Source: a virus. Taken from it: 64,000 bases of DNA. The stretch spans positions 11,256-75,255 of IMG/VR virus record IMGVR_UViG_3300045971_001064; one strand, written 5' to 3'. Both the position numbers and the translations under genes were made by a program. The stretch's first letter is position 1. Each line of letters starts with the position of its first letter. A model generated the notes under the pieces. It had not been told where the DNA came from, did not search any database, and saw nothing but the letters and a program-made list of their open reading frames with translations. Shown here piece by piece: positions 1 through 20,266 of this stretch.

Positions 1-106
1 CACTCGGTGGAACGAGAAGAAGGTCCTGCGAGTCATCAACGTAGGGGTCGACGTGCGAAGGTACAGGCCTGTGACGCTTGAAGAACTGCGTGCGGCCGGG
101 CCCTAA
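1..106 (+). CDS. 3' end of a gene running in from the left, resembling a metallophosphoesterase C-terminus
   Basis: Frame 2 reads TRWNEKKVLRVINVGVDVRRYRPVTLEELRAAGP*. INVGVD..Y.PV.LEE is typical of phage calcineurin-like phosphoesterase C-termini. Partial. Confidence 0.45.
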   Translation, partial: TRWNEKKVLRVINVGVDVRRYRPVTLEELRAAGP

Positions 107-111
107 TCTAG
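104..111 (+). promoter_or_regulatory. Putative late promoter TAATCTAG
   Basis: Exact motif 25 nt upstream of ATG 136; recurs before most + strand islands. Confidence 0.6.
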
Positions 112-135
112 GCTGTAGACCTCGGAGGTCCCTCC

Positions 136-714
136 ATGCTGCTGTCTGCTCGAATCCTCAACAACGTCGTGGACGTGAACACCTTCGAGGTGTGCATGAC
201 CCTCGAACTCACGCAGGGCGACGCGCCCACCATCTACTTCGCCCTCATCGACGCCTCGGTCAACAAGCACAAGGACCCGCACGGCCAGCGCTACGTGGCC
301 CCGAGCGACGCGACCCTGAAGGTGGTCTTGCAGGACATCAACACCGCGGTGACGCTGACCAAGTACGCGACACGCCCCTTCCCCGGCGACCAGAGCATCT
401 GGTCCATCTCCTTCAACCCGGTGACCGACGCCACGTCCATGGCAAGCCTGCTCGGCACCTACGCGCTCAAGCTGACCCTGACCGAGCCCGGCACGACCCT
501 CCCGGCCGCGTGGTCTGCCACGACCGTCTACGCCCTCGACGACCTCGTGTCCTACAGCGGGGGGCTGTTCCGCTCGTTCCAGAGCCTCAACCTCAACAAC
601 ACGCCGGGCGAGGTGGCCATCTGGTGGGTGCAGATGAACACCGTCAACACCAAGGTCATCTCGGGCTTCGTCTCGCAGGCCATCTCCATCGCGCGCTCGT
701 CGCCGGAGTTCTAG
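136..714 (+). CDS. Putative virion protein with an inserted CBM5/12-like carbohydrate-binding module
   Basis: Contains AWSATTVYALDDLVSYSGGLFRS...NTPG....WW; high-GC codon usage; lies in a structural island. Confidence 0.55.
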   Translation: MLLSARILNNVVDVNTFEVCMTLELTQGDAPTIYFALIDASVNKHKDPHGQRYVAPSDATLKVVLQDINTAVTLTKYATRPFPGDQSIWSISFNPVTDATSMASLLGTYALKLTLTEPGTTLPAAWSATTVYALDDLVSYSGGLFRSFQSLNLNNTPGEVAIWWVQMNTVNTKVISGFVSQAISIARSSPEF

Positions 715-717
715 GCC

Positions 718-1602
718 ATGGCCATCTTCACCACCCCATCACCTCCGGGCTCGGTCGGCTACGGTGCTGGCGACAAGGTCAAGGTCGGCTCCGAGTACGA
801 CAACGCCGTCGACGCGCAGGCGGCAGTCACCCGCGTCGAGCCGCTCATCACCGTCGACCAGTTGAAGGACCGCTACCTCTTCGGCATCCCGCTCGTGGCG
901 CCTCTGCCCGACCCGCTCACCAAGAAGCGCGCGGTCATGTCGGATGAGATGCTGAGGGACGCCATCGTTCGCGCGGTGAGCACCGTCGAGGCGGCCATCG
1001 GGGCTGGCTTCCACATCATCCCCACCCAGATTCAGCGCCGCCTGCCCTTCGACCGCGCCGAGTACATGTCGCTGGGGTTCTTCCGCATCCCTGAGACACC
1101 CATCCTCCGCGTCTCGGAGTTGAAGGTGAAGACGGCCGACGGCGCCGGAGTCTACGAGGTGCCGTGCAACTGGCTCGACCCGGGCCAGTTCAAGAAGGGC
1201 CAGATTTCCGTCATCCCCCTCATGCCCGCCAGCCTCTACGGCGGCAGCGCACTGCCCGCCTCCTCCGGCGGCGCGGCGTGGATTGCCATCCTCGGCAACA
1301 TGGGCTGGGTGGCGTCGTACTGGACGCTGACGGCCATCGTGGGCTTCGAGGAAGGGCACATCCCGATGCAGGTGAACGAGGCCGTCGGCCTCACCGCCGC
1401 CATCGACGTCCTCGGCAAGCTCGCCGCACTCTACCGCGTCCAGAGCTACAGCACCGGGCTCGACTCGGCCAGCCAGTCCGTCAGCACAGCCGGTGTCGCC
1501 CTGTACGACAACGCCATCCAGCGCATGCAGGATGAGTTGAAGAGCAAGGTGAACCAGTTGAAGGGCCGCTACTACAAGCGCATCTTCGTCGACAACGTCT
1601 AG
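718..1602 (+). CDS. Putative head-tail adaptor / head completion protein
   Basis: N-terminal helix DEMLRDAIVRAVSTVEAAIG, a beta-rich insert, and a C-terminal LDSASQSVS..helix layout typical of myovirus adaptors. Confidence 0.5.
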   Translation: MAIFTTPSPPGSVGYGAGDKVKVGSEYDNAVDAQAAVTRVEPLITVDQLKDRYLFGIPLVAPLPDPLTKKRAVMSDEMLRDAIVRAVSTVEAAIGAGFHIIPTQIQRRLPFDRAEYMSLGFFRIPETPILRVSELKVKTADGAGVYEVPCNWLDPGQFKKGQISVIPLMPASLYGGSALPASSGGAAWIAILGNMGWVASYWTLTAIVGFEEGHIPMQVNEAVGLTAAIDVLGKLAALYRVQSYSTGLDSASQSVSTAGVALYDNAIQRMQDELKSKVNQLKGRYYKRIFVDNV

Positions 1603-1611
1603 AGGCCTCGC

Positions 1612-4600
1612 GTGAGCAACGGCTACTGGGTGTCCAAATGCGGCCTTCGAGTGCCGAAGGCCGACAACCCGCTGCGCAAGCAGTGGGACGCCGCCTATCT
1701 TGCGCGCGTGTCCGACTACTTCGGCGACAAGGACCGCGACCTCGTCCCCGCCCACATCCCGGTCTCGAAGCTCATCGGCGGCCATGGCGCCAGCGCCGAC
1801 AACAGCCGCGGCCAGTTCTACGTCCGCCTCCTGAAGCTCGGTGAGCGCATCCCGCCCATCGTGGTCTCGGAGATGGGTGACGGCAACTACCACGTCCTCG
1901 ACGGCAACCACCGCGTCGCCGCGGCTCAGGTCTCAGGCACCTCGCACCTGCACGCGCTCGTCATCAAGGACAAGAAGGGCGCCAAGCCGCGCTCGACCTC
2001 GCCCCACGTCTTCACCGGCACCAAGGTCAAGAAGCTGGGCGCGAAGCCGATGAAGAAGAGCGAGGGGGCCGACATCCTCGACCTCTCGAAGCACGAGCGC
2101 GAGGTCCCGCCCGAGTTGCCTCAGCGCATCATCCACGCTCTCTGGGCCATCCGCCAGCCGGGCGTGCTGACCGACGAGCTTCGCCAGCCCCAGTACCGCT
2201 CCAACCCCGACCCGTTCGCTGGGCACTGCTTCGTCGCGACCAACGCGCTCTACCACCTCATCGACGGCCCGAAGACCGGCTGGAGCATGAAGTGCATCCA
2301 CAAGGAGCACATGGAGGGGCTGGCGGACGACTCGCACTGGTTCCTCCAGCACAAGAAGACGGGCCACATCATCGACCCGACCGCGGACCAGTTCGACTCG
2401 GTGCCGCCGTACGAGAAGGCCGTGTCGAAGGGCACCAGCCAGACCGGCGAGGACGTGGGCAAGCCGACTCAGCGCGCCGAGAAGGTCATCAAGCGCGCGA
2501 GGGCTGTGATGGCTGGCGAGCCGCTGACCAAGGGCGAAGAGGAGATGGAGAAGGCCGAGTCGAGCCCCGAGTTCGAGTCGTGGTTCTCGGGCTCGAAGGC
2601 TGTCGACCACGAGGGCAAGCCGCTGAAGTTCTTCCACGGCACCTCGAAGGACAGGGACTTCCACACCTTCAAGACGGGCCAGCGTGGCGCGTGGTTCACT
2701 GACGACCCCGAGGAGGCCAGCCTCTACGCGGACCAGAACGACAGCCGCGGGGCCAAGCTCGACCGCTACACGATGCAGTACAAGGAGCACAACACCGCGG
2801 GCCGCGTCATCCCGGTGCACCTGTCCATCAAGAACCCCTACACGCCGAGCTTCGAGGAGTTCAAGGAGATGAAGCACGCCCAGAACTACGCTTGGGCGCA
2901 GCGGAAGCTCTTCGAGAAGGCGAAGCTGGCAGGGCACGACGGCGCCAACATGGGCGCTGGCATCTGGGTCGCCTTCAACCCGAACCAAATCAAGTCGGTC
3001 TTCAACACCAAGCCGACTCAGCACCTCGCCATCCACAAGGCGGAACTCGCCAAGGCCATCGCCCCCGGCACGCAGACGGGCAGCTTCAACAAGGACGTCG
3101 CGCAGGAGTGGGACTACAGCCACCTGCTGCCCCAGCACGCGCGTGACGAGGGCTACCGCATCCGCCTCATCGCCCACAAGTACAAGGGCGGCGCGGGCAA
3201 CAGCGGCCACGTGCAGGTCCTCGCTCGCCAGACCGTCGACGGCCGCACTCGGCATGTTGGTGCGACGACCGGCCACTTCGACGGCGGGACCGTGCTGGTG
3301 CGTGACGCGCTGGTGGAGGAGAAGGACCGTGGCGCCAGCCGACGCAAGGCCGGGAAGAAGCCGCTCGGCGTGGGCACGGCGCTGTACGAGGCGCTCTACG
3401 CGCACGCTCGTGCTCAGCTTGGCTGCACCGCCGCCGAGGGCGACATCCACTCGACCTCCGCCCACAACGTGCACCGCAAGCTGTCGCGGAAGCACGGGCT
3501 CACCTACGAAGGCAAGCCGAACATCAGGCGCACTGGCGGCCTCGGGTACCGCGACATGGACGAGTGGCGTGAGACTCCTGCCTCCGACCACGACGGCAAG
3601 TACGAGGAGTACGGCTACCGGCTGCCCGACGTCCTTGAGCCGAAGCAGACGAACAGCTTCGCCGAGCACAAGCTCCCCGGCTCGCTGCACGCTGAGGGCT
3701 ACCGGCTCAACATCTCCCACAGCCCCGACACGACCATCGGCACCATCCACCGCCACGGCGAGGTCCTCGGCCACATCGAGTTGACGCCCAAGGGCCACGC
3801 CTTCGAGGAGTGGACGGGCGAGAACAACCGGACCGGGCTCAGCGACGCCGTGCTGTCCGTGCTCCGCGGCCACATGGGAGGCGAGGCCGGGCACGACGAG
3901 TGGAATAACGCCTCCAAGCCCGAGCAGATGATGAAGGCTGAGCAGGTCGACCTCACCGACTTGCTCAAGGCCATCCGCCCCACGAAGCAGGTCAAGTTCG
4001 ACAAGCTGCCCGAGCCTCCCACTGGCAGGCGCCCCGACAGCACCCGCCCGCCTCTGCCCGGCTACAAGGCGCAGCCGTACGGCAGCGATAAGAACAACAC
4101 CTTCGACTACAGCCACCTCCTGCCGAAGGAGTTCCAAGGCAAGTACCGCATCTACGTCCACACCACGGACTACACTGGCGAGAAGGGCCACGAGCGTCAG
4201 TCCACGGTCACAGTTCACCGCGCGCCGCAGCCCGGGCCCACGCCCGTCGACATGGCTGCTCGCGAGCCCATCCTGACCGCCTACGGCAACCACATCAAGG
4301 TGCCGACCAACAACATCCGCACCGAGGGGCTGTACAGGCAGGCCATCCAGCCGCACATCATGCCTCTCACGGACCGTCGCGCTGCGGGCATCACCCCGTA
4401 CGCCATGATGGCCCTGCTGGCTCACGCGCGCAACAACCACGGCATCAAGATGCTCGACATCCCTGAGCACACGCCTGCGGCCTCCAACATGATTCGCCGC
4501 TACTTGGGGCTCATCGGCGCCAAGTACGAGGGGCAGCAGGTCCCGAACCCCCAGCACGGCGATGCCCAGTACGACCCCTTCGTCCGCGACCCCGAGCACA

Positions 4601-7600
4601 TGTTCACGGGCCAGCGGGTCATGCTGAAGGCCGAGGACATCGGACCGGCGGACGGCAGCCACATCACCGCCCCGCACCAGAGCTACGTCCACGGCGCCGC
4701 GGCCAAGCCCTTCGGCACCGAGTACGAGGGCGGCAAGAACGTCTGGGGACGCAACCACCCGGGCAAGAGCAACAAGGGTCGCACGCTGATGGTCCAGTTC
4801 TCCTCCGACCTGCTTCAGGGCGGGCGAAAGAAGGATGAGGCGGACCAGTACTACGACAAGCTCTACTCGAAGCGCGAGGGCTACCACCGGGGACAGGATT
4901 TCTGGGAGGTGCCGCAGTGGCAGGCTCACATGGCGCACTCGATGCCGAACGCCGACCACTACACGGTGCGCGACCCCGAGGAGGCCATCAAGTTCATGGG
5001 CGCGGCGGGCTACGACCACGTGGCCTTCTCCGCTCTCGACGTCAACAAGGACTTCGTCCGTCGCCTCGCTGAGGGCGCTCCTGACCAGCACGTCGTCGTC
5101 GGCGGCTACACGGACATGGCGCACTTCGGGGACCTGAAGAACGTCTCCGTGCACCCGAGCATCAAGAGCTTCGTCGAGTCCGAGGGCCACACCTACCAGC
5201 CCGGCTACGACTACCGGCACTTCACCGGGATGAAGACCATCCCGCGCCTGACCCTGAGCGACGGCTGCCGCCACCAGTGCACCTTCTGCTGCGTGCCCAA
5301 GCAGGTCAACGAGAAGACCCGAGAGGAGATTCTCCAGCAGGCCGACAGCTTCGCCACGCACCTGCCCAGCGACCTCATCTACCTGAACGACAAGACCTTC
5401 GGGCAAGCGAAGAACCACGCGATGCTGCCGGAAATCTACCAGCGCATCAAGGCGAAGAACCCCGGCTTCAAGGGCTTCATCATCCAGACGACCGCGGCGC
5501 AGATGAAGCGCTTCACGCCCGAGTACATGAAGCAGGCGGGCATCAAGCACGTGGAGCTTGGCGTGGAGTCGGTCAACGACCCCATCCTCAAGGCCCACAA
5601 GAAGCCCGCCACCGAGGCCATCATCGAGGACGCCGCCAACAAGGTGCGCGCCGCCGGGGCCAGCCTCATCCCGAACATCATGGTCGGCCTGCCGGGCGAG
5701 GACCGCACCACGTACGCGCGGACGCTGGGCTGGCTCCAGAAGCACCGCGACATCATCAGCCACGTGAACGCCTACAACCTCGCCCTCTACGACGACAGCG
5801 AGCTTGGGAAGAAGCTCCAAGTCATCAACGCGGCCGACCGTGACGAGAACGTGCAGCAGAAGTCGTGGCACACCGACCCGCAGGCGCACGCCGACTTCGC
5901 GAAGGCGCTCTTCGGGTTCGCCAACGGCCAGTTGGACCAGCCCATCGGCCACACGCAGTTGGTGAAGTTCGAGGACCTCGTCCTGCTGGACCTCAAGAAG
6001 AACCAGCCCCTCCCCGGCCACGAGCAGGTCGGCGAGCAGCTTGGGTCGAACCCGGGCGGCGTCTACCAGCACAAGAAGACCGGTAAGCAGTACTACGTGA
6101 AGTTCGCGCCGACCAACGACCACGCGCACAACGAGCACCTCGCCTTCCACCTGTACCAAGCGGCTGGCGTCCCGACCCCGAACGTCTCGCTGGTCGAGCA
6201 CCAGAAGGGCAAGCTCGCCACCACCTCCGAGATGCTCCCGGCCGTGGACCTTGAGACCAACGCGGACTACCACAACGCGGCCCAGCACTTCGGGGCTCAT
6301 GCGTGGCTGGCCAACTGGGACGCGCTCGTCTCGGGCAACACGGTGAACGTCGAAGGCGTGCCCCACACCATCGACGCTGGCGGCGCTCTCCAGTACCGCG
6401 CCATGGGCGGGCCCAAGGGCAACCTCTTCGGCACTCAGGTCGGCGAGTTCAGCACGATGCGCGACCTGAAGATGAACGGCGCCGCTCGCGCCTTCCAGCG
6501 CCTGTCCCCTGACGAGGTCGCTGCCTCGGTCGCTCGTGTCGGCAACGTCTCGGACCAGACCATCGACGAGTTGGTGCGCGCCTATGGCCCCGTCGAGAAG
6601 GAGAAGGCGGAGTGGCTGGCCAGCACCCTGAAGGCCCGCAAGCAGCACCTGCTCGCTCAGGCTCACGCTGAGACCGGCATCAAGCCGCTGGGGAAGGCGG
6701 AGGGCCCGCACCCGTACTTCGCCGCGGCTGACGAGGCTCCGACGAACGAGGGCATCGAGGCGGCTGAGCAGGCCTACCACGGCGGCGTGGCCAACCTCGG
6801 CGACCCGGACGCGGCCCACCACATTCAGGGCATGGGCGGGTACTTCGACTACCGCTCGCACTTGGAGAACGCCGCGCACCAGCACCTCGGTGCCGAGTTC
6901 CCGGTGTGGCGCAACATGTCGGTCGAGCAGTACCGCGGCTGGCGCAACGGTGAGAACGTCGGGCCGGTGAGCGTCACCCTGAACCCCGACGTGGCGCGCA
7001 ACTGGAGCAAGCTCGCAGCGGTCAAGGGCGAGCGCTCGGTGGTGCAGTTGAAGGCTACGCCCGCCTCCATCCTGATGCGCGGCCGTCCCGAGGAGCACGA
7101 GTTGGTCATCGACGGCGACCAAGTCGAGCTTCCCATGGCCAAGGCTCAGGCCTTCATGAAGAGCCCCGCCTTCCGACACATCGCCTCAGGCAAGGTCGTG
7201 GCGACGCCCGTCTTCCACGACACCGCGCACTTGGGTCGCGTGGCGAAGCTGAAGTTCGACAAGGAGAACGACGAGTACCCCGAGGCATACACGCACTGGG
7301 AGGCGGGCTTCCTCGACCACGCTGGCAACTTCTTCAACCGCGAGGACGCGCTCAGGGCCGTCAGCACTTCCAAGACCCCCTCCTCGACCATCAGCGCCGC
7401 GATGCAGGCCGACGGCGGCTTGGAGTCGACGCAGTACGCCGCGGGCCAGAGCAAGGGCATCTTCAAGGCTGAGGTCGACCGCCACGACCCTGTCTCCTGC
7501 GTCGTCATGGTGCAGGACGCGCTGGGCCGCACTCTCTGGGGCAAGCGCAAGGACGGCAAGTACACGATGCCCGCCGGTCACGCCAACCAGAACGAGTTGC

Positions 7601-9627
7601 CTCCCGACTGCGCCAAGCGCGAGTTGATGGAGGAGGCGGGCCTGAAGGCTGAGGCGCTCTGGCTCATCGGCTCCGCCAACGGCAACGAGGGCCCTGTCCA
7701 CGTCTACCACGCCGTCAGCCACGGCAAGGCGTGCACCGACCTCGACCCGGACCGCGAGATGGCTTCGTGGGAGTGGGTCGACTGCCTTCGCGGCCCGCCT
7801 CCGCACATCACCGCCAACCTCGCCCACAACCCCAACGCCGTCTACGCGCTCATGGGCTGGGAGCAGCCGCTGGCGAAGGGCGCCATGCAGCGCGTCGCCC
7901 CGATGAAGCACCCGCCGAACAAGAACCCGTCGTACCCTGACCCGAGGATGCTGCACAACTGGCAGGAGGGCGCGGAAGACGTCCCTTCCGACGGCCGCAA
8001 CAGCATCAAGCCCATGGCTGGCCCAGTGTTGGCGCGCGGCCTTCACAGGCTGCACGGTCACACTCAGGTCCGACGCAGCGCTGAGACCGGCGAGCGCGAG
8101 TTCCTCCTGCACCGCGGCGTGGGCGCTCTGGAGTACAGCCTCGGTGACCGAGGGCCCGGCAGCTTCGCTCCCAACGAACTGTCTTCGTGGACGCCTCACC
8201 GCGATGTCGCTGAGCGGTTCTCTCGTAACGTAGTGACGGCTTGGATTCCCGAGGGGCACATCCATGCTCTGGGCTCCATGAACCCGTGGAGCAATGACTC
8301 GGACCTGAAGAGGGAGAGCGAGGTCATCGTCCGCCCGGGGCAGTTCGAGCGGCACCAGCCTGCGATGGCCAAGTCCGAGGACGACGAGCAGGAAGCTCCT
8401 CCTCGTCCGCCGCCCGACCGCAGCTACGAGCGCCGCTTCCCTCTGCCTGAGTACTCGCACTTCGGGCCGAAGAACATCCACAAGCAGTGGAAGAACACCC
8501 AGTACCTCGACGAGCCCAGCAGGGAGAACCCGGGCGAGCGCAAGAGCATCTGGGACCTCGACCAGCGCGACATCGACCCAATCCGCGAGATGGACTTCAA
8601 GAGGAACGCTCCGCACCTGAGCACCATCTCGAAGGCCGTCCACAAGATGGTGGGCGGGACCAAGGCGTACTCCTCCGACCGGATTCACGACTTCATCGTC
8701 GACTCCGACCTGCCTTCGCAGAGTGAGCACCCCGACTTCCCCGGCACGTTCACTTCTCAGGCCTTCCACAGCGACACCGGCAACCACATCGCGAAGGAGG
8801 ACGCCAAGCGGCTCGCGTACCTCTTCGGCGACGACGAGGCGGTGAGCCACAAGGACTCCGTCCCCTCCTTCAAGATGGCTCTGCACGAGATGATGCACGG
8901 CGCGTCCGGCCAGTACAAGTACGACACGCACGACCGCCGCTTCATCGAGGAGGCGACGACCGAGGTGCTGGCTCAGCACTACATGCCGCAGGTCCTCAAG
9001 CACTCGCACGACATCGACCTCAGCTACTACGGCGGCGGCCATGAGAACCCTCTGGTCCGCATCGACTCGAAGACCGGCGAGACCTACCTCGACCGGCCCG
9101 TGTCCTACCACGGCTGGGTGGACAAGTTCGCGAAGGTCGTGGCTCACATCGAAGGACTCGACGAGCCCGCCAAGCTCGACGAGACCGGGCACTACAGCGG
9201 CGACGAGCACGACGAGAAGGAGCGCAAGCTCAGCCACATGGTCGCGTGGTACGCCCTCAAGATGAAGCAGATGGGGCATCACGAGTCCTCGCGCTCGACT
9301 TGGTTGCAGCAGATGTGGATTCACAGGAAGCTGGGCGTCAGCCCGCCCGCGGTCGCCGTCTCGCATCCGTACTACGGCATCCGCAATCGTCTCCACGACC
9401 TCGCCTTCGACCCCATCGGGAAGCACTACGTCTTCAATGCGGAGACCAACAAGCACGAGGAGGTCGACCCGCCGCGCGGCATCTTCCACCACTCGCGCGA
9501 GGTCACCCGGGACACCCTAAAGGCCATCACCGAAGAGCTTGCCAAGACGCACCGGCTGAGCTATGTTAGGGTGAGCGACCCCGGCTACGAGGCCGCCAAC
9601 CCGGAGAAGGACCCTTATGCCCCGTAA
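1612..9627 (+). CDS. Giant polyvalent polyprotein (2671 aa): ParB-like, papain-like, ART, 2-3 GNAT-like, B12/radical SAM, HipA/PI3-4K-like kinase, ART, unknown, Nudix, ART, zincin
   Basis: Motifs in order: VLDGNHR; GHC..SHW..IDPTADQF; FHGT..GAWFT..VHL.IKNP..AFNPNQIKS; GVGTALY; CxxxCxxC with VELGVES and GLPGED; YYVK..NEH..NWD..IDAG; WRN..SVT..EEHELV; Nudix box GHANQNE...RELMEEAGL; HRG..SSW..ESEVIV; HEMMH..EE. GTG start with GAGG upstream. Confidence 0.8.
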   Translation: MSNGYWVSKCGLRVPKADNPLRKQWDAAYLARVSDYFGDKDRDLVPAHIPVSKLIGGHGASADNSRGQFYVRLLKLGERIPPIVVSEMGDGNYHVLDGNHRVAAAQVSGTSHLHALVIKDKKGAKPRSTSPHVFTGTKVKKLGAKPMKKSEGADILDLSKHEREVPPELPQRIIHALWAIRQPGVLTDELRQPQYRSNPDPFAGHCFVATNALYHLIDGPKTGWSMKCIHKEHMEGLADDSHWFLQHKKTGHIIDPTADQFDSVPPYEKAVSKGTSQTGEDVGKPTQRAEKVIKRARAVMAGEPLTKGEEEMEKAESSPEFESWFSGSKAVDHEGKPLKFFHGTSKDRDFHTFKTGQRGAWFTDDPEEASLYADQNDSRGAKLDRYTMQYKEHNTAGRVIPVHLSIKNPYTPSFEEFKEMKHAQNYAWAQRKLFEKAKLAGHDGANMGAGIWVAFNPNQIKSVFNTKPTQHLAIHKAELAKAIAPGTQTGSFNKDVAQEWDYSHLLPQHARDEGYRIRLIAHKYKGGAGNSGHVQVLARQTVDGRTRHVGATTGHFDGGTVLVRDALVEEKDRGASRRKAGKKPLGVGTALYEALYAHARAQLGCTAAEGDIHSTSAHNVHRKLSRKHGLTYEGKPNIRRTGGLGYRDMDEWRETPASDHDGKYEEYGYRLPDVLEPKQTNSFAEHKLPGSLHAEGYRLNISHSPDTTIGTIHRHGEVLGHIELTPKGHAFEEWTGENNRTGLSDAVLSVLRGHMGGEAGHDEWNNASKPEQMMKAEQVDLTDLLKAIRPTKQVKFDKLPEPPTGRRPDSTRPPLPGYKAQPYGSDKNNTFDYSHLLPKEFQGKYRIYVHTTDYTGEKGHERQSTVTVHRAPQPGPTPVDMAAREPILTAYGNHIKVPTNNIRTEGLYRQAIQPHIMPLTDRRAAGITPYAMMALLAHARNNHGIKMLDIPEHTPAASNMIRRYLGLIGAKYEGQQVPNPQHGDAQYDPFVRDPEHMFTGQRVMLKAEDIGPADGSHITAPHQSYVHGAAAKPFGTEYEGGKNVWGRNHPGKSNKGRTLMVQFSSDLLQGGRKKDEADQYYDKLYSKREGYHRGQDFWEVPQWQAHMAHSMPNADHYTVRDPEEAIKFMGAAGYDHVAFSALDVNKDFVRRLAEGAPDQHVVVGGYTDMAHFGDLKNVSVHPSIKSFVESEGHTYQPGYDYRHFTGMKTIPRLTLSDGCRHQCTFCCVPKQVNEKTREEILQQADSFATHLPSDLIYLNDKTFGQAKNHAMLPEIYQRIKAKNPGFKGFIIQTTAAQMKRFTPEYMKQAGIKHVELGVESVNDPILKAHKKPATEAIIEDAANKVRAAGASLIPNIMVGLPGEDRTTYARTLGWLQKHRDIISHVNAYNLALYDDSELGKKLQVINAADRDENVQQKSWHTDPQAHADFAKALFGFANGQLDQPIGHTQLVKFEDLVLLDLKKNQPLPGHEQVGEQLGSNPGGVYQHKKTGKQYYVKFAPTNDHAHNEHLAFHLYQAAGVPTPNVSLVEHQKGKLATTSEMLPAVDLETNADYHNAAQHFGAHAWLANWDALVSGNTVNVEGVPHTIDAGGALQYRAMGGPKGNLFGTQVGEFSTMRDLKMNGAARAFQRLSPDEVAASVARVGNVSDQTIDELVRAYGPVEKEKAEWLASTLKARKQHLLAQAHAETGIKPLGKAEGPHPYFAAADEAPTNEGIEAAEQAYHGGVANLGDPDAAHHIQGMGGYFDYRSHLENAAHQHLGAEFPVWRNMSVEQYRGWRNGENVGPVSVTLNPDVARNWSKLAAVKGERSVVQLKATPASILMRGRPEEHELVIDGDQVELPMAKAQAFMKSPAFRHIASGKVVATPVFHDTAHLGRVAKLKFDKENDEYPEAYTHWEAGFLDHAGNFFNREDALRAVSTSKTPSSTISAAMQADGGLESTQYAAGQSKGIFKAEVDRHDPVSCVVMVQDALGRTLWGKRKDGKYTMPAGHANQNELPPDCAKRELMEEAGLKAEALWLIGSANGNEGPVHVYHAVSHGKACTDLDPDREMASWEWVDCLRGPPPHITANLAHNPNAVYALMGWEQPLAKGAMQRVAPMKHPPNKNPSYPDPRMLHNWQEGAEDVPSDGRNSIKPMAGPVLARGLHRLHGHTQVRRSAETGEREFLLHRGVGALEYSLGDRGPGSFAPNELSSWTPHRDVAERFSRNVVTAWIPEGHIHALGSMNPWSNDSDLKRESEVIVRPGQFERHQPAMAKSEDDEQEAPPRPPPDRSYERRFPLPEYSHFGPKNIHKQWKNTQYLDEPSRENPGERKSIWDLDQRDIDPIREMDFKRNAPHLSTISKAVHKMVGGTKAYSSDRIHDFIVDSDLPSQSEHPDFPGTFTSQAFHSDTGNHIAKEDAKRLAYLFGDDEAVSHKDSVPSFKMALHEMMHGASGQYKYDTHDRRFIEEATTEVLAQHYMPQVLKHSHDIDLSYYGGGHENPLVRIDSKTGETYLDRPVSYHGWVDKFAKVVAHIEGLDEPAKLDETGHYSGDEHDEKERKLSHMVAWYALKMKQMGHHESSRSTWLQQMWIHRKLGVSPPAVAVSHPYYGIRNRLHDLAFDPIGKHYVFNAETNKHEEVDPPRGIFHHSREVTRDTLKAITEELAKTHRLSYVRVSDPGYEAANPEKDPYAP

Positions 9628-9847
9628 GGACTACCGCACGCTCATCGCCGCCGAAGCGGTCGTCATGGAGCCGCGCTCGACGGCCGAGCAGGTCAAGGCT
9701 GCAATCGCCTCGGTCGACGCACTCGGGGACCGCGAGCAGTCGGTCGCCATCCGCCAGACCCTCACGCACGAGGCCCACCACCGCGCAGACGCCCCGGGGA
9801 ACGACGCAGAGGGCTCGGACGAGGCCTCGGAGGGGTCCGGCCACTAG
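9617..9847 (+). CDS. Hypothetical protein
   Basis: Overlaps the upstream stop; plausible codon usage. Confidence 0.45.
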   Translation: MPRKDYRTLIAAEAVVMEPRSTAEQVKAAIASVDALGDREQSVAIRQTLTHEAHHRADAPGNDAEGSDEASEGSGH

Positions 9848-9893
9848 AATCGCTCCACGGGGCACGCAGGAAGTCTGGCGCGGCTTGGCGAGG

Positions 9894-9904
9894 CGTGCTA
9901 GGAT
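9894..9904 (+). promoter_or_regulatory. Extended -10 promoter CGTGC-TAGGAT
   Basis: Same CGTGCTA core as eight - strand promoters. Confidence 0.45.
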
Positions 9905-10151
9905 GAAGGGAACAGGCAGTGAACCAGCGGAAGGAGACCGACCCTGCGAGGGAGTCCGTCAAAGCCCTCTACCACCAAACCTGCTTAAACCCACGTTCTT
10001 TCAGACCAATCCTTGAATCGCAGCACGGTCCACTGACTCTGGCCGATACAAAGAGTCGAGGAATGGCGGCCACTTACGACCGCCCCCGGGCCACCGGGTG
10101 CTGTGAACAGGACGGGGGCGTGCGCCGCCCGCGGTAGTCATCGAGGAAGTC

Positions 10152-10421
10152 ATGGTCAAGCTGGTCATCAAGCTGCTGGACTCAGGCAAGAGCGAGACGT
10201 TCATCGGGTCCGAGAAGGACGCCGAGCAGCGCCTGCGCGTCCTGTTCCCCCGCGAGACCGAGCACACCGGCCGCCTCATGTCGTGCATCTCGGCCATCAA
10301 CGCCGAGGGCTTCGGCGAGGTCGACGTGGCTCCGTACATGCCGCCTCCCGAGCGCAACCTGCTGCCCAAGGACTACGACGCCGACGTGCACCGCGAAGAC
10401 CCGTGGCCGCGCTCCGAGTAG
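10152..10421 (+). CDS. Hypothetical protein
   Basis: SD GAGGA; typical codon usage. Confidence 0.65.
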   Translation: MVKLVIKLLDSGKSETFIGSEKDAEQRLRVLFPRETEHTGRLMSCISAINAEGFGEVDVAPYMPPPERNLLPKDYDADVHREDPWPRSE

Positions 10422-10448
10422 CAGCAATCTGTAGAGCGTGCCCGCCGG

Positions 10449-10456
10449 TAATCTAG
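10449..10456 (+). promoter_or_regulatory. Putative late promoter TAATCTAG
   Basis: Exact motif; ATG 10463 follows within 8 nt of the hexamer. Confidence 0.6.
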
Positions 10457-10462
10457 GTGGGG

Positions 10463-13400
10463 ATGGCCCCTCCCAAGAGCAACGTCAACCCCGCGGGCTC
10501 TGGCCCCTTCTTCCACGCGAAGGGGCACGAGGTGTCGAAGGGCCACAAGCTGGCCAACGGCGGCAACTCGTGGGACTGCCAGTCGTGCGGTCAGGACTAC
10601 GACCCCGACGAAGTGTTCGCCGAGCACGAACTTCCTGAGGACGACGGGCTCGGCGGCGAGACCGTGAAGGTCACCAAGCCCTCGGTCACTCCGTCGCTCT
10701 CACCTATGCAGGCTGCTCAGAAGGTGAGCGCGCTGCTCGATGGCACGCCCGACGTCAAGCCGTCCGGCGTCGTGCAGATGGAGGCGCCTGCTGGCTTGGC
10801 CAACATGGGCGAGCGGCTGGTGGGGCAGAACAAGACGGCGAAGCAGAACCGCCGCTGCTGGCAAGGGCCCGGCAGCGAAGCCCTGCACGCCCAGTTCAAC
10901 CACCGCATCCACACGCCCCTCGCCAACGTCTCGCTGGAGGGTGAGCACTTCGACCACCATCACGGCGCGTGGCTCAAGATTCAGGGCAACTCGCTCTACG
11001 TCGCCAACAAGCTCATCGGCGACTCGCGCGTCAGCCATGACACGCCCCTCAGTCACATCGACCTGTACAGCGCCTACAAGAGCACCCCGCACGCTCCGGC
11101 GTCGACGTTCCTGAAGTACCTCGTGCACCGCATCAACCACGTCGAGGACTACGAGGACCCGACCAAGGGGCACAAGCTCGACGTCGCCTTCAAGGAGTTG
11201 GTCCAGCGCGGCGGCGCGGCCGAGAAGAACGGCCACATCTCCATCCAAGACCTGCACGACTGGACCGACAGGCACGCCACCACCGTGGTGCCGCAGTTGC
11301 TGGCCGAGAAGCAGCGCATGCAGATGGACGTGGCGCGCGGCATCGGGCTCAACGTCCGCAGCATCAACGGCGAGCCCCACGTGGCGCTCACCCGCGGGCT
11401 CAACTCGGACATCATGCAGGACGAGCACTCGCTCTCCTCGCATGCTGACACGGTCGACACCGGCTTCGGCTCCGACATGCACCACTCGTGGGTGCCGCTG
11501 AAGGACCTCTGGTTCCTGTACGACCTCGACCGCACCGCGCGCTCCCACATCCACATGGGGCCCGAGGACGAGGCGCTCATCTCGAACACGGGCCCGCGCT
11601 ACGAGGCCTCGGCGCACGACGTCAAGAAGAACCGCATCAAGCGCTGGCCGAGCCAGCACCCCTACGTCTACGACGACATGTCGGACGAGAGCCTCGCCAA
11701 GCTGCTGAGCGGCGCGTCGTCCAACCCTGACGCCGACAACGAACTGAAGTACGCCATCAAGGACCACAAGAACGCTGGCCCGGCCGTCTGGGCGTTCGAG
11801 CGCAGGCGGTTCGAGGATGCCGGGATGACGCCTGAACTGGGTCGCCCGCCCATCGGCGCCTTCGGCTACAAGTGGTACCCTCGCGAAGAGGTGATGAAGG
11901 CCGCTGCGCTCTCGAAGGTCAGCGTCGACGGCCCCGCGTGGTTCCGCAACCAGAACCTCAACGCACAGGACTTGGAGACGTTGTCGGCGAAGCTCTTCGA
12001 CGGCGAGCCGAAGAAGAACAGCTACTCGGGCCTCGTCGATGAGGGGGCTCAGCAACTGCTCACGCACCCCGCGATGAACTCGCACGTGCTGGAGCGCATC
12101 TGGAGGGCGCAGCACGGCTCGCCGTGGGCTCCGACGCTGCTGGAGTCGCCTCTGGCCACCCACCAGATGCGCGAGGACGCCATCGAGCAGGCGAAGTTCA
12201 TGTCGGGAGCCGGGCTCCTCGCGCCCCTGAAGCTCATGCGGGCAGTGACGAGCAACCCTCACCACACCGAAGAGCAGGCGCAGAAGGTCTTCGACTGGGC
12301 CGTGCAGAACGGGATGTTCAGGGACAACGAGGACCTGCACAACGCCATCGCTCGCGCGAAGCTCCCGGCCGAGACGGTGCTGAAGCTGTACGACCGCCGC
12401 GACGAGTTGGGTGAAGAGCAGGCCGTCAGGAACTCCTCCCGCGGCTTCGAGCCCGGCGGGCACCTCACGCCGGATGAGCGGCGAGAGTACAATACGCTCG
12501 GGGCCATCAAGAACGACTTCATGCAGGTGCACCCCGACGCCAACGTCGTTGCCCGGGTCGCGGCGTCCAAGCCCGGCCGAGTCTCGCCGCTCACGCTCCT
12601 CCAGCGCCTGAGTTGCAACGGCGGGACCTTGGAGCCCGTGTTGCAGGCTGCCCTCATCACCGAGTGCGAGCACCTCTACGGCCACGGCACCCCTCACCTC
12701 GGCTCGACTCGCCAGCCGGTGGTGGAGTTCTTGGAGAAGCTGGCCGGGGCGAAGGGGCTCTCGCAGGAGAGCATCAACTACCTCGCGCACTACAAGGACA
12801 ACTTGGTGCGTGAGGTCCTCGGCCTCAACAAGAGCATCGCGCCCGAGCAGCTTCGCGCCGCCTTCCCCAAGGGCGTCCAGTTCCCCGAGCGCTCGAACAT
12901 CCACTACGAGACCGGCACCCACACCGGCACCATCGCCGAGGAGCTTGGGCAGGCCTACTGGCGCCGCAAGCAGTACGCTGAGAAGAAGGCCAAGCTCCAC
13001 TTCATCAAGCCCCTGCCCGCGGACCTCGCCAAGTCGAGCGAGGAGGACCTGTGGCGCGCGGCTGCACGGCACTGGCTGGCCGACCAGACGACCAAGGGGT
13101 TCTACGCCGTCATCCACAAGGACGTCGCCGAGGGCGCTCTCCGGGACAAGGCCATCGAGCCCCAGTTCACGGACGAGTTGCTGGACGGCGAGGCCGTGTT
13201 CGGTCGCCCTGCCACGCCCGAGAACCTCATCAAGCTCCAGAAGCTGGCTGGCCCGGACGAGGTGGTGGCCTACTTCGAGACACCTGTCGCTCCTCGTGAG
13301 CACACCGACGGCAGCCTGTACTGGACCGAGCGCGTGCCCTGCGAGACCATCCAGTTGGCGGACGTGGGCGACGAGCCGCTCGCCAAGATGCACACGCCCC

Positions 13401-16400
13401 TCACCTTCCCGAAGCTGGGCGTCGAGGACGATAGGCGCGAGACGAAGGTCGTCACCACTCCTCGTGAGCGCCAGACCTTCAACCGCGCCGCGGGCAACAT
13501 GTTTGCCCGTGAGAGCTACGTCACCGACGACAGGAGCCAAGGCGACATCTACGAGAGGTTCCGCGAGAACCCGGCGATGAAGCAGGCCACCATCGACCGC
13601 GACACCGCGACCATCGCCAAGGACAGGCACGTCGGCGCCCAGTACACAGGCAACGCTGGCGTCGGCCACCCGGGCCACGGCGCCCCGCGCGACGAGCGCG
13701 ACCTCATCCCCGACGCGGGCACCGGGGCGTCTGCCACGTCGGCCGCCTTCGCGCCTTCGTCTGCTCCTCGTCGGAAGCTCAACCCGGCTGAGGCTGCCGC
13801 GTGGAGCGACCCGACCTACCTGCCGAGCACGCTGCATCACGAAGACCTCCACCGCATCTTCGCGCGGGTCCAGCACAAGCACGGCGAGCGCGGCCGGGAG
13901 ATGTTGGCCCGCAACCTCGTCCACGTGCTGCCTCAGGACCTCCAGTCGGCGGTGATGAAGCACCTGTTCTACGCGCAGCCGAAGAACATGAACGAGCCCT
14001 TCCCCGAGGAAGAGGCCATCACCGAGTTGACGTCGTACCTGAACAGCCCTCAGATGCGCGACGGCTTCCACAAGAAGCAGCAGCACTCGTCCGAGCAGCA
14101 GAAGGCCTTCCACGACAAGATGAAGCGCGCCTACCGGCTCCTGCTGGCGGTCTCGCCCACGGTCGACGAGGGCTGGCTGCACCACGAGAAGCCGTGGATG
14201 AAGCGTGGCGTGGCCATGCGCAAGTTCACCGAGCCCCAGTCCGGCACCGGGCTGTCGGCCGCCGAGGCCCACGAGGTCTTCCGCGGCTCGAACAAGCTGA
14301 CGAAGTCGCGCCCAGACCTGCTCGACGCCAACTCCTTCGCGTTCGCCTTCGAGACCGACCCGACCTTGATGGACAGCATCGACGCGCGCCACTGGGAGTT
14401 GGAGTTGCGCAAGATGGGGAGCTTGAACGAGTACCCTACGGCCGCCTCGAACTTCATCAAGGAGTTCCAGAAGCGGACCGTGCACAACGGGTTCGACGAG
14501 CGCCTCGGCCGCTACCACAACACCACGGGCGACAACACCGAGGGCACTCTCATCGTCATGTCTCCGCGCATCAAGGCATGGAGCGACAAGCCGACCGTGG
14601 GCCTCGACTGGATTCAGGCGCTGAAGCAGGGTAACGGCGACGGGCACCGGTCCATGAAGTTCATCACCGACCTCGCCGACAAGCATGGCGTCAGCGTCGA
14701 GTTGCACGTGGGCAGTGACGGCGGCGCCAAGACGTCGCCCAAGTCGATGCTCCACAAGTTCTACAAGAAGCACGGCTTCGTGAAGCGCGGCAAGTTCGAG
14801 AAGGACATCCTCGTCAGGCACGCGACCACGCACGCTGTCACCGAGCCGGGCGAGACGTTGAAGCTGGGCTCGACGATGCGGACCATCAAGAAGGCTGAGG
14901 AGGAGTTCGACCTCGCCAAGATGGCCGTGGTCCACGACGACCCCGAGAGCCCGATGACGGTCTACCGCGTCGAGGACCCCGAGACCAACCTCGGCCCCTA
15001 CACCGACCCCGACGAACCGCCCTCGAAGGTGGAGCCTCCGCGCGGCCAGACCCTCCGCGACCGGACCACCGGCTACCGCCGCGCCAAGACGCACCCGAAC
15101 CCCGAGCCCGAGACCGACTTCGATGCGCGCGACTACCGGGACTTCGAGGCCCAGTACAAGAAGGTGCGCTTCGGCTTCATGTCCCGGCAGGACGCCTACA
15201 ACTGGTTCGGCCGCGACCTCTCCGGCGCTGTCCGGGAGCAGGAGCACCCGCCTTCCTACAAGGTGGTGAAGGTGCTGGCGCGCAAGGTGTGGAAGTCGCG
15301 CACGGGCAAGCAGGTCTTCTTCGTGCCGCACAAGCCAGTCAAGAAGAGCGAGCCCGAGGGCGACGTGCTGGAGAAGATGTCGGTCTTCCACGACGACCCG
15401 AAGAATCCGCGCAAGGTCTACCGCGTCGAGGATTATCATGGCCGCGGCCCGTACCAGAACAAGTACGACGTGATGCCGGACAAGGAGCGCGACCCCCGGT
15501 GGGCCGCGAAGCGCCCGAACCCCGGTCGCGACTTCCCGGCCAAGGAGTGGTCGCAGAACCCCGAGGGCGGCGTCTTCGGCTTCGCTCGCCCAGAGGATGC
15601 TGTCGAGTGGTTTGGTCCGCATCGCCTCGCTCGCCTTAAGGCCACAGGCTTCGAGCTTCGTGAAGTGCTGGCTCACAAGGCCTACCTCTCGAACTCCGGT
15701 AGGCAGGTGGTGTTCCAGCGTTCTCCTCCTCCGCCATCTGGCGCGCGACCAGCCAACCCGGTAGTCCCTGTACCGAAGGTCAAGGGGCCGTGGGTTCCAC
15801 ATCCTGAGGCCGCTGAGCACGCGGTGACGGCTCTGCGTAACGCCCACGACCAGCACCTCGACACGCTCTCGGCGGCCTTCGGCAAGCTGCCCAAGCAGAA
15901 GCAGGTCAAGGTCGAAGGGTTGGAGGACTCATTCCAGCAGGCTCTCTCGGAGAAGGATGCCGAGTCGCTGAAGGACCACCCCTTCGTCCAGTGGGCTCGC
16001 ACCGTGGTTCCTGAGTTCGGTCAGTCCATGCAGAAGAGCGAGGACTTCGTGTTGCCCACCGAGAGCATCCTGAAGCCCGGCGAGGAGTCGGCTGCCAAGC
16101 TCATGCTCGGCCACCGCAAGGACCACGAGACCGCTCTCAAGGCCGCTCGCTTCCTCACCGGCCGCAAGGAGCCCGTCGACGAGAACCTGTTCACGCTGGC
16201 CCTCAACGTCTTCGACGGCGACTTCGAGCGGGCCGCTCTGTTCGCCGTGGGGATGACGGACTCCGAGGCCAACCTGAAGGCCTTGCGCGCCGCCCTCAAG
16301 CTGGGTGAGTTCTCGCAGGAGACCACCGAGTTGTCGAAGAACGAGCCGGGCACGCCTCACATCGAGAGCGTGAACCCGGGCGCTCCTGACGCGACGCCCA

Positions 16401-17257: not shown

Positions 17258-17740
17258 ATGACCCTCACGTGCCCAAGGTGCAAGGCTGCTAAGCCGTCCG
17301 ACCAGTTCAATCGCGACGTGAGTCGCCCAAGCGGAAGGCAGGTGTCCTGCCGAGCGTGTGAGAAGGTCTACCGCGACACGATGATGGACAGGACCAAGAG
17401 GTCGGCCGACAACAAGGCTTGGCGCTTGGCCAATCGCGAGTACGTTCGTGCCGAGAACCGCGCGTGGCACTACCGCGCCAACTACGGCATGACCATCGCC
17501 GACTACGACGCGCTGTTGCTGAAGCAGGGCGGTGGATGTGCGGTCTGCAAGACTAAGAAGACCGGCACGCGCAACCACTTCTTCTGCGTCGACCACCGCC
17601 ACGTCGATGGCTACGACGCGCTGGTGGCCGAGGAGAAGCGGCGTCACGTCCGCGGCCTGCTCTGTGTGACCTGCAACTTGGTAGCCGGGAAGCTGGAGGA
17701 GTTCCCCGGCGCCTTCGAGGCCTACGTGGCGGGGCTCTAG
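17258..17740 (+). CDS. Endonuclease VII-family HNH homing endonuclease
   Basis: YGMTIADYDALL.KQGGGCAVC...VDH.H...VRGLLC..CN, plus an N-terminal CxxC/CxxC. Confidence 0.85.
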   Translation: MTLTCPRCKAAKPSDQFNRDVSRPSGRQVSCRACEKVYRDTMMDRTKRSADNKAWRLANREYVRAENRAWHYRANYGMTIADYDALLLKQGGGCAVCKTKKTGTRNHFFCVDHRHVDGYDALVAEEKRRHVRGLLCVTCNLVAGKLEEFPGAFEAYVAGL

Positions 17741-18267
17741 ACGTCCAGCCTCATCTGCTTGGCCTGCTGCGCCTTCCACATGGTGCCGAAGCTGGTGCCG
17801 GTGACCGCAGCGGCCCGGCGGATGGACATGCCTGACGCCATCAGCTTCAGCCCCTTCGCCACCGCCTTGGGGTCGACCGGCCGCCGCCCGTTGCCCACGC
17901 GCCTGTCCGGCTTCACGTAGCGGTCGTACTCCTTCAGCGCCTTCCGGATGGTGGCGATGAGCTTGCGCTCGGCCTTGACGATGGCCAGCGCCGTCAGCGC
18001 ACGGTCACCGACGCCCGGCATCATCGGCCCGCGCGCCATCTCCTCTAGACGCCTCGCCGCTTGCTCCTTCTCGATGTCCGTCGTCCGCAAGGGCCGGAGG
18101 GGCGGCAGGCCAGCGGCGCGGCGCTCGATGGGGGTGTAGCCCGCGTACCCCGGCTCGCCCTCGCGCAGCGCCTTCTTCTTGTAGTCGGCGTACTCCTTCT
18201 GCGTCTTGATGGAGCCCTTGATGCTGATGTTGGGGTCGAGGCCACTGATGCGGTCGAGGAAGCTCAC
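17737..18267 (-). CDS. HTH DNA-binding protein
   Basis: GTG start with SD AAGGAG; C-terminal KGLKLMASGMSIRRAAAVTGTSFGTMWK helix-turn-helix. Confidence 0.6.
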   Translation of the reverse strand: MSFLDRISGLDPNISIKGSIKTQKEYADYKKKALREGEPGYAGYTPIERRAAGLPPLRPLRTTDIEKEQAARRLEEMARGPMMPGVGDRALTALAIVKAERKLIATIRKALKEYDRYVKPDRRVGNGRRPVDPKAVAKGLKLMASGMSIRRAAAVTGTSFGTMWKAQQAKQMRLDV

Positions 18268-18746
18268 AGGTTCTCCTTGGGGTAGCTGAGGATGGGGATG
18301 ACGTCGCCCCAGTACGCGCGGACCCGCTTGCCAGCGTCCTGCGTGCGGCGGTAGCGACGGCTGAAGGCGCGCTCGATGACCATGCTCTCGTAGACTTGGA
18401 TGGGCAGCGGGTAGCCGATGCCGGGGTCGTGGACCACGCCGTTGAGCAGGAGCACCCAGTGCCCCCACATCGTCTTGTTGTCGACCACGGACATGACCGC
18501 GAACTCGGGCAGGCGGGTGAGCTTGCCCTTGCGCCGGTAGAAGCTGGAGCACTTCCCGACCTTCATGCCGAGCTTGCGCAGGCCTCGGACGAGGTCCTCG
18601 ACGTCGGTCCCGGCTTCACGCAGGGTGGAGACGCCGACTGCCGCGGTGGCCTCGTCGAGCGTCACGTTGGCAGCCATGGCAACCACCGCCTGACCGCACA
18701 TGCCGCTTGAGTCCGGCTGGAGGAGCGGCTTGACGGAGAAGGTCAT
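18264..18746 (-). CDS. Peptidase C39-like papain-fold protein
   Basis: LQ....CGQAVVAM ... GHWVLL.G.VHDP (Q-C-H-D). Confidence 0.7.
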   Translation of the reverse strand: MTFSVKPLLQPDSSGMCGQAVVAMAANVTLDEATAAVGVSTLREAGTDVEDLVRGLRKLGMKVGKCSSFYRRKGKLTRLPEFAVMSVVDNKTMWGHWVLLLNGVVHDPGIGYPLPIQVYESMVIERAFSRRYRRTQDAGKRVRAYWGDVIPILSYPKENL

Positions 18747-19042
18747 GTCGCCTGCCGCACGTCGTGGACGGTGAGCTTCCAGCCGCAGTTGGGGCACTTG
18801 TGCCCTTCGGTCTGGTAGGTCTCGGTGAAGCCGACCAGCCTGTACTTCCACACGCCGACCTGCCCCTCGACCGGCTTGCCCTCGATGACCCAGCAGGGCT
18901 GCTCGCGGTCCTCGTTCAACTCGCCCTTGCGAAGCTGGAGAATCTGGGCGCCGAACCGGTGGCCGACCTTCTCCACCAGTTCGAGGTTGGTGTGCTCCTT
19001 CCCGTCGGCGAGGATGGCTGCAAGCTGGTCGAGGCGGTTCAT
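18743..19042 (-). CDS. Winged-helix / zinc-ribbon hypothetical protein
   Basis: HTNLELVEKVGHRFGAQILQLRK; C-terminal CPNC; TAGGAT 6 nt upstream of the ATG. Confidence 0.55.
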   Translation of the reverse strand: MNRLDQLAAILADGKEHTNLELVEKVGHRFGAQILQLRKGELNEDREQPCWVIEGKPVEGQVGVWKYRLVGFTETYQTEGHKCPNCGWKLTVHDVRQAT

Positions 19043-19051
19043 GGCCCTATC

Positions 19052-19390: not shown

Positions 19391-19426
19391 AGGAAGCAGT
19401 CTACTCCTTCTCGGGTTCGATGTCAA
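19388..19426 (-). promoter_or_regulatory. Sigma70-type leaderless promoter P1
   Basis: TTGACA-N17-TAGACT-N7-ATG. Confidence 0.8.
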
Positions 19427-20265: not shown

Positions 20266-20266
20266 G

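Follow-up and report, generated by a model that had tools for sequence, protein, structure and literature searches.

Polyvalent proteins are regarded as the earliest weapons of an infecting phage, and the locus described here recalls both these proteins and the substrates of head proteases. The head proteases of phages T4 and phiKZ have Glu at P1. Glu is also the P1 residue of the SPN3US head protease (PMC5694885, PMC10052503), and in some SPN3US proteins more than one site is cleaved (PMC10052503). ParB-containing polyvalent proteins of the DdrB type adjoin virion genes, and the processed DdrB of phage P1 is packaged in the head (PMC5512222). We describe P0001, a predicted protein of 2671 amino acids (aa) encoded on the plus strand at positions 1612–9627 of the window, the whole stretch of 64,000 nucleotides that was analysed. 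The window corresponds to bases 11,256–75,255 of a 98.7 kb IMG/VR virus record (IMGVR_UViG_3300045971_001064), with a GC content of 66% and an estimated completeness of 60%. The gene is one unbroken open reading frame (ORF) with a GTG start and without internal stop, and its product has a mass of 297.7 kDa. It contains 12 modules with at least nine different folds, eleven of them plausibly catalytic, and the linkers between them carry a recurrent short peptide ending in Glu, which suggests a polyprotein that would be cut into its component enzymes.

A Recurrent Linker Peptide

Ten copies of the motif [MILVF]-x-K-[AFGS]-E were found in P0001, compared to 0.64 expected, and none of 2000 shuffles reached ten. 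All ten were located in inter-module linkers, nine at the end of a module and the last one (E309) seven residues upstream of E316 (Table 1). Synonymous codons differed among the copies, which argues that selection acts on the linker peptide and not on the DNA. In the two AlphaFold2 (AF2) models, those of D2 and D8, the linker-bearing termini showed a low predicted local distance difference test score (pLDDT). Among the 193 retrieved homologues of at least 400 aa, the motif was enriched 6–25-fold in 31, at their module ends, and was absent from the more distant polyvalent proteins.

In the contig, six proteins carried 24 sites (approximately 1.3 expected), whereas the remaining 99 proteins carried four (4.8 expected). 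The six corresponded to the scaffold-like gene preceding the major capsid protein (MCP) gene, to P0001 and a second polyprotein encoded downstream, and to three genes of the structural module. A similar situation was observed in Myxococcus phage Mx1, in which, over the first 86 kb, the portal-to-sheath block held 19 sites where 2.7 were expected, and the remainder held four, with 4.4 expected. The Mx1 proteins bearing the motif included the portal, the scaffold-like protein, the annotated "protease", the polyvalent protein and the kinase protein. The motif is therefore enriched only in proteins of the structural (portal-to-sheath) module in this contig and in Mx1. By analogy, a short Glu-ending motif confined to head-module proteins has the look of the head-protease substrates of T4, phiKZ and SPN3US.

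A different junction was seen in P0014, a distant polyvalent protein of metagenomic origin (3301 aa). The sequence x-F-M-A-[ED]-K was present there in eight copies (nine FMA sites in all), and FMA[ED]K flanked both sides of a radical SAM module of the same type as that of P0001.

Exchange of Modules Among Relatives

The closest homologue, P0002, is encoded at a locus collinear with that of P0001, with flanks 84% identical. Within the gene, the alignment split into DNA blocks of 72–92% identity, ending at aa 301/314, 772, 1004, 1450, 1846, 1947, 2086 and 2268. All eight junctions fell within approximately 12 residues of a linker Glu. Modules D5 and D11 were replaced in P0002 by unrelated modules, D7 and D8 were both absent, and two modules of P0002 were absent from P0001. 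Identity, taken module by module, was mosaic. The order of the modules also varied: D4 preceded D3 in P0005, and the Mx1 protein began with a YunG-like module and finished with a ParB-like one. These alignments show that, among related phages, modules are swapped, dropped or rearranged at the linker peptides. The comparison of homologous loci for gain and loss of domains, suggested along with the original prediction for this locus, thus revealed both, with breakpoints close to the linker Glu residues in P0002 and reordering in P0005 and Mx1.

Proposed Processing and Packaging

We propose that P0001, from an Mx1-like myophage, is a polyvalent effector that is loaded in the prohead, cut at its linkers and ejected into the host, and we give this reading a probability of roughly 0.6. 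The 2671-aa chain would enter the prohead as a polyprotein, and cleavage after each linker Glu would yield approximately 11–12 enzymes of 12–50 kDa. Cleavage would be due either to a head maturation protease or to the putative peptidase D2 of the chain itself. The products would be ejected with the DNA and would act on the host before any phage gene is expressed. Their targets may be host proteins, nucleotides and nucleic acids, modified through ADP-ribosylation, acetylation, phosphorylation, Nudix hydrolysis and radical SAM chemistry. With one gene and one loading signal, the phage would obtain an effector set of fixed stoichiometry that is easily re-assorted. Taken separately, cleavage at the linkers appears quite likely.

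Several observations weigh against this proposal. Two further junctions are degenerate, with MAKAQ (at the end of D8) and LAKGA, and the sequence LxKGAMQRxAPFNP is a conserved part of the D11 domain, not a linker. A strict copy of the motif was looked for in the MCP of this contig and of Mx1 and was not found. The portal, the terminase and the gene annotated as "prohead protease" in Mx1 lie beyond the start of the contig. No Peptidase_S77 (T4-type) or S78 (HK97-type) was detected in Mx1, in one relative or in this contig. The Mx1 "putative prohead protease" (1240 aa, Mx1 13002–16721, L014) is conserved in the IMG/VR relative G001 at approximately 36–39 kb (L019), and its annotation corresponds to a 47-residue match to a head-protease PHROG (E 1e-4 in the protein search and 3e-5 in the genome search). 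This protein matched no Pfam peptidase family, and a PDB search with its N-terminus found nothing. An Fe-S enzyme of the radical SAM type would also be hard to accommodate in an aerobic virion, unless it received its cluster after delivery. Finally, the vRNAP of phage N4 is a giant multi-domain protein that is packaged uncut (PMC5512222).

As to the cutter, the alternative is self-processing, in which the transglutaminase-like Cys peptidase D2 (or the D12 zincin) would cut the linkers, in the capsid or after injection, with no separate head protease. The predicted fold of D2 is that of site-specific processing peptidases, and Iyer et al. proposed self-processing for polyvalent proteins bearing an MPTase (PMC5512222). 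We nevertheless lean towards a trans-acting head protease, D2 being the main alternative, because the motif is also a mark of the scaffold and portal proteins and is still present when D2 is missing or has no Cys. Self-processing without a head protease is considered unlikely.

The chain might also stay uncleaved, as a 298-kDa multi-enzyme protein packaged in the manner of N4 vRNAP or acting late in the cytoplasm, with the repeat serving as a flexible spacer or as a joint for cassette recombination. The coincidence of the recombination breakpoints with the linkers would agree with such a joint, and several plasmid polyvalent proteins are, like N4 vRNAP, transferred uncut (PMC5512222). Yet the motif is kept as a peptide with varying codons and not as a DNA joint. 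It is also present in single-domain proteins of the head module (scaffold-like, portal), where no cassette joint is needed, falls to background frequency outside the structural module, and ends in Glu, which is also found at P1 for the head proteases of T4, phiKZ and, according to PMC5694885 and PMC10052503, SPN3US. We regard an uncleaved chain as quite unlikely.

It is possible, and here we are more tentative than for the packaged and cleaved effector itself, that this lineage of double-stranded DNA phages has a true polyprotein strategy. The product of a single head-module gene would be divided into approximately 12 injected enzymes at a linker code particular to the lineage (h-x-K-[A/S]-E here, FMAEK in another), and whole enzyme cassettes would be swapped between phages at the same points. 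Among the products would be the first radical SAM enzyme delivered by a virion. This hypothesis implies that the Fe-S cluster of that enzyme is installed in the host after ejection.

P0001 makes the question of how one chain serves many targets testable: the predicted cut sites are countable, the cultivable phage Mx1 has the same code in its head proteins, and natural module swaps occur at the sites. The predicted radical SAM enzyme, HipA-like kinase and Nudix-ADP-ribosyltransferase pair would widen the effector repertoire. If the linker code is a protease code, packaged effectors could be found in uncultured phages from sequence alone.

Integrity of the Gene

The start codon of P0001 is located 10 bases past the stop of the preceding gene. 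The GC content at third codon positions (GC3) was 0.92 for the whole gene and 0.83–0.95 in each of the 12 modules, and that at second positions (GC2) was approximately 0.42. The entire length therefore behaves as native coding sequence. A Logan assembly made independently from the probable source run matched positions 1–11,000 of the window at every base. In a second pond sample, identical short contigs spanned three linkers, at nucleotides 2065, 3046 and 6703, without any credible joints; the "joints" reported for these contigs had sides of merely 21–22 letters. P0002 (2629 aa) is present on four contigs, the two shown coming from two different runs, and homologues of P0001 on the 1.5–4.4 kb-aa scale come from many independent samples.

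An artefact, either a chimeric metagenomic assembly or separate genes read through, might be feared for a metagenomic contig of a mosaic family able to mislead assemblers, but it is highly improbable given the 8 kb free of stops in DNA of 66% GC, the uniform GC3 and the homologues from independent samples, and a chimera is excluded for practical purposes by the identical Logan assembly, the linker-crossing contigs of the second sample and the four contigs carrying P0002. The original prediction of a single 2671-aa protein with approximately 12 domains in series, which an assembly chimera joined at the linkers would have refuted, was borne out by the uninterrupted ORF with its 12 modules and by these independent contigs. 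Its module coordinates agreed to within a few codons with the boundaries adopted here, which were set by the recurrent linker and are consistent with the ends of the BLAST alignments to homologues.

The Twelve Modules

The positions and main motifs of the modules are given in Table 1. Significant Pfam matches identified three modules, comparisons of fold or profile or transitive links supported four to five, and three to four were read from motifs.

The significant matches confirmed three domains that had been read from motifs in the original prediction. D3 matched the ART-PolyVal family PF18760 (E 2.8e-16, 61 bits against a cut-off of 31.2), as expected for a polyvalent-type ADP-ribosyltransferase (ART). 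D10 matched NUDIX (1.5e-10, 41.7 bits against 21.1) with an intact GX5EX7REUXEEXGU box, and Nudix hydrolase 1 in the PDB (1.3e-4). D6, which was the best conserved module with 92% DNA identity to the P0002 gene, matched Radical_SAM (PF04055; 8e-15, 55.8 bits against 29.5) and contains the CX3CX2C motif in the form CRHQCTFC. Its PDB profile matches were TM_1862 and RimO (6e-10). The radical SAM part of its earlier description stood, whereas the B12-binding part was not confirmed: PF02310 was not matched in the Pfam search, and no Cys triad was seen on reading the N-terminal part. An assignment of D6 to the class B (B12-binding) radical SAM enzymes or to the MiaB/RimO methylthiotransferases was not supported. 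The NCBIfam models for MiaB/RimO, HpnJ, PhpK and B12-type radical SAM enzymes matched the core only (40–50 bits against cut-offs of 250–600), and the N-terminal region is specific to the family.

The GNAT-like character of D4 and D5, including a possible further copy, was supported. D4 itself reached E 0.038 with Acetyltransf_1 (14.7 bits against 20.7), and the homologous module of P0007 reached E 3.1e-10 (40.8 bits). The C-terminal 90 residues or so of D4 (about aa 685–777) repeat its N-half (hhalign 86.6%, E 4.5e-6). D5 aligned with the D4 profile (hhalign 96.6%, E 4.9e-10), and the protein atlas also gave a GNAT lead. The acetyl-CoA motif is of the RRKxLGxA type in D4 and is degenerate in D5 (RRAAGIT).

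For D8, the proposed R-S-E ART was confirmed by its fold. The AF2 model had a pLDDT of 92.7, all 50 top PDB matches in Foldseek were ARTs, and the top AFDB-SwissProt match was the EFV Arg-ART (E 2.1e-4). Residues R70, E131 and E133 are invariant, SVT (S-x-T) and E-x-E are conserved, and the module had no Pfam match and no PDB sequence match. The second R-S-E ART proposed, D11, has the corresponding motifs, and its profile aligned with the D8 family (hhalign 74%, E 2.7e-5) with R, S-x-T and ExE in register. This assignment remains a sequence-level one, and the matches to DRAT were weak (E 0.056 for D11, and 8.6e-4 for one member of a scanned pool of 43 module sequences).

The D8-type ARTs form a large and widespread family with no Pfam model or PDB sequence match (P0064, P0073, P0112, P0131 and approximately 50 others). 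They share an invariant N-terminal AE..W.GGVAD.GD helix region and occur as parts of giant phage proteins and also on their own, as proteins of approximately 155 aa on small contigs. A Nudix domain directly followed by a D11-type ART (window 7474–8379) is a recurrent pair, found in numerous unrelated large proteins (P0055, P0071, P0084, P0104 and others). D11 always opens with the conserved peptide L-x-K-G-[AS]-h-Q-R-x-A-P-F-N-P, usually with K-S-E just before.

The other assignments were more qualified. D1, described as ParB-like, showed the LDGNHR motif and repeated weak matches (PHROG ParB-like 2e-4; TIGR00180 1.5e-3; ParB_N in five of eight family members, 2.2e-4 at best), all below the curated cut-offs. 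The papain-like Cys-His-Asp reading of D2 held at the level of the fold, with a low-Z match to the transglutaminase/papain clan, and the Cys is not invariant among the homologues. D2 had no PDB match by sequence or profile search and no significant Foldseek match against the PDB. In D7, considered to be a kinase, the motif residues show a kinase-like spacing and are invariant across eight homologues, but the matches to HipA_C (E 0.0013, 18.9 bits against 30.5) and HipA_2 (E 0.037) fell below the cut-offs, and a PDB sequence search gave no match. Profile comparison of D7 with the PI3/PI4-type kinase of Mx1 showed no relationship, and the kinases of the two polyproteins therefore belong to different families.

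D9, noted earlier as an unknown GFLD..G.F..RE.A domain, has no known function, and a resemblance to Pfam T4_Y16D was found. Its protein atlas score was 0.89, with 206–213 of 256 features common to the PF26092 clusters; PF26092 was precomputed for P0003. The alignment showed the motifs AFRH, FHD and GFxDHxGxFxxR. For D12, the proposed zincin is suggested by its motifs: in the homologues covering this part, EEATTEhLAQHY (EEAxTExLA) does not vary, and conservation is also seen in the HExxH region. No Pfam, NCBIfam or PDB sequence match was obtained, and the protein atlas gave a weak lead to Peptidase_M78.

Table 1. Positions in the window of the modules and linker motifs of P0001 and of the flanking genes.
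Feature	Residues	Window position	Strand	Remarks
D1, ParB/sulfiredoxin-like	1–151	1612..2064	+	LDGNHR; ends MKKSE
D2, YunG-like, candidate Cys-His-Asp peptidase	152–316	2065..2559	+	transglutaminase/papain-clan fold; ends MEKAE
D3, ART-PolyVal ADP-ribosyltransferase	317–478	2560..3045	+	PF18760; ends IHKAE
D4, GNAT-like acetyltransferase with truncated further copy	479–777	3046..3942	+	ends MMKAE
D5, Pro-rich linker and divergent D4-type GNAT-like copy	778–1008	3943..4635	+	ends MLKAE
D6, radical SAM enzyme	1009–1454	4636..5973	+	CRHQCTFC; family-specific N-terminal region of ~200 aa; ends LVKFE
D7, HipA-like/protein-kinase-like	1455–1697	5974..6702	+	GSNPGG, YYVK, NE, NWDx5N, IDxGG; ends LGKAE
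D8, R-S-ExE ADP-ribosyltransferase	1698–1847	6703..7152	+	family without Pfam model; ends with degenerate MAKAQ
D9, small T4_Y16D-like domain	1848–1954	7153..7473	+	ends IFKAE
D10, Nudix hydrolase	1955–2087	7474..7872	+	intact Nudix box GHANQNELPPDCAKRELMEEAGL
D11, second R-S-ExE ADP-ribosyltransferase	2088–2256	7873..8379	+	LLHRG, SSWTP, ESEV; ends MAKSE
D12, putative zincin metallopeptidase	2257–2671	8380..9627	+	HEMMH, then EEATTEVLAQHY ~17 residues on
Ten linker motifs (Glu residues)	151, 309, 316, 478, 777, 1008, 1454, 1697, 1954, 2256	2050..8379	+	
Ends of linker Glu codons		2064, 2538, 2559, 3045, 3942, 4635, 5973, 6702, 7473, 8379	+	
Adaptor-like structural protein, upstream neighbour	294 aa	718..1602	+	phrog_772; homologous to Mx1 23551–24396
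Second polyprotein, downstream	2261 aa	10457..17242	+	three linker-motif copies; C-terminus homologous to Mx1 "kinase" (PI3_PI4_kinase)

The Phage and the Gene Neighbourhood

A nucleotide search against 50,697 phage records gave no match for the contig DNA. The best phage relative, found by tblastn, was Mx1, and the contig can be assigned to an uncultured Mx1-like myophage, the host of which is probably a myxobacterium. The contig is collinear with the structural module of Mx1. The common order comprises a scaffold-like gene, the MCP gene (55% identity), two small genes, the adaptor-like gene (phrog_772/442), the polyvalent gene, the kinase-bearing gene, six further structural-module genes, and the tail sheath and tube genes. 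The position of P0001 between head-completion genes, as first described, was thus roughly right: an adaptor-like gene lies upstream, and downstream is the second polyprotein. The latter gave almost no Pfam signal. Its residues 1652–1756 matched phrog_1106 (E 2.4e-21 for the protein), and the homology to the PI3_PI4_kinase-type protein of Mx1 covers the C-terminal 380 aa. Its counterpart in the P0002 phage has 1834 aa.

The scaffold-like protein (348 aa, contig 2823–3869) is encoded just before the capsid gene, approximately 7.4–8.4 kb upstream of the window start. It contains a long Pro/Ala/Gly-rich repeat (PPGADPSA...) and four to five K-[AS]-E sites clustered at both ends. At the contig start (314–1861), a 515-aa protein contains Ig-like repeats, and its N-terminus resembles a signal peptide. 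Past the window end, at contig 81110–87805 in the tail/baseplate region, there is another giant ORF, the third, of 2231 aa and with a GC2 of 0.52.

As compared to Mx1, the structural module is split by minus-strand islands of short genes at window positions 17737–28840, 35104–38293 and 39703–42183, which include a DNA ligase (22780–23934) and an RNA ligase (36014–37378). Endonuclease VII/HNH genes are scattered in the structural module (window 17258–17740, plus strand; contig 5453–5938, upstream; L016 9556–10008). The P0002 phage has an additional one directly before its polyprotein gene, where the window has no such insertion. These genes look like mobile homing-type insertions.

Comparison with Known Systems

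P0001 is a member of the polyvalent-protein class (PMC5512222), as had been suggested. Its approximately 12 unrelated modules lie within the 2–15 unrelated conflict-type domains of the class, the ART-PolyVal hallmark is significant, and the gene is situated in the late/structural module of a phage. Like the polyvalent proteins described (PMC5512222), P0001 has ART-PolyVal, ParB-like, GNAT, kinase and peptidase domains in one chain, is encoded among late/virion genes and shows a mosaic, fast-evolving architecture. As regards the MPTase hub of the class, D12 has conserved HExxH and EExxTE motifs, yet it differs in the absence of a match to the Pfam MPTase model or to NCBIfam and PDB. The kinase of P0001 is HipA-like, whereas those of the described proteins are of a truncated Ser/Thr/Tyr type. 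Radical SAM is not mentioned in that text, in which Nudix appears only as a neighbour or fusion of InPase (PMC5512222), and a full-text literature search retrieved no paper linking radical SAM enzymes to polyvalent proteins. P0001 further differs in that its modules are punctuated by a Glu-ending peptide common to scaffold and portal proteins, which points to processing by a head protease rather than to MPTase self-processing alone.

In Mx1 (OR576727.2), WNM70333 ("NUDIX hydrolase", 1479 aa) and WNM70334 ("kinase", 619 aa) occupy the same position as P0001 after the adaptor-like gene. WNM70333 has YunG-like, GNAT, ART-PolyVal, Nudix and ParB-like modules and the K-[A/S]-E punctuation. Unlike P0001, it is approximately half as long and lacks the radical SAM, R-S-ExE ART and zincin modules. 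The sole direct match between the two proteins was over the YunG-like module, with 41% identity.

The internal proteins of T4 and its ADP-ribosyltransferase Alt, together with the inner-body and ejection proteins of phiKZ and SPN3US, are packaged in the capsid, cut after Glu at short motifs by the prohead proteases gp21, gp175 and gp245 while the head matures, and ejected into the host. In these phages, cleavage mostly removes the N-terminal propeptides of single-function proteins, whereas in P0001 it would release about a dozen enzymes. With Lys at P3 and a hydrophobic P5 residue, the motif of P0001 differs from L/I-x-E and A/S/G-x-E, and no S77-type protease was detected in Mx1, in the relative searched or in this contig. 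Multi-domain proteins of very large size are also known from P1 (DdrB/DarB) and N4 (vRNAP). They are carried in the head and injected, and serve to protect or express the DNA that enters the cell. P1 DdrB undergoes a single cut and N4 vRNAP none, and neither has a regular linker code or the enzyme set of P0001. The new element in P0001 is a regular, protease-like punctuation that coincides with the recombination breakpoints.

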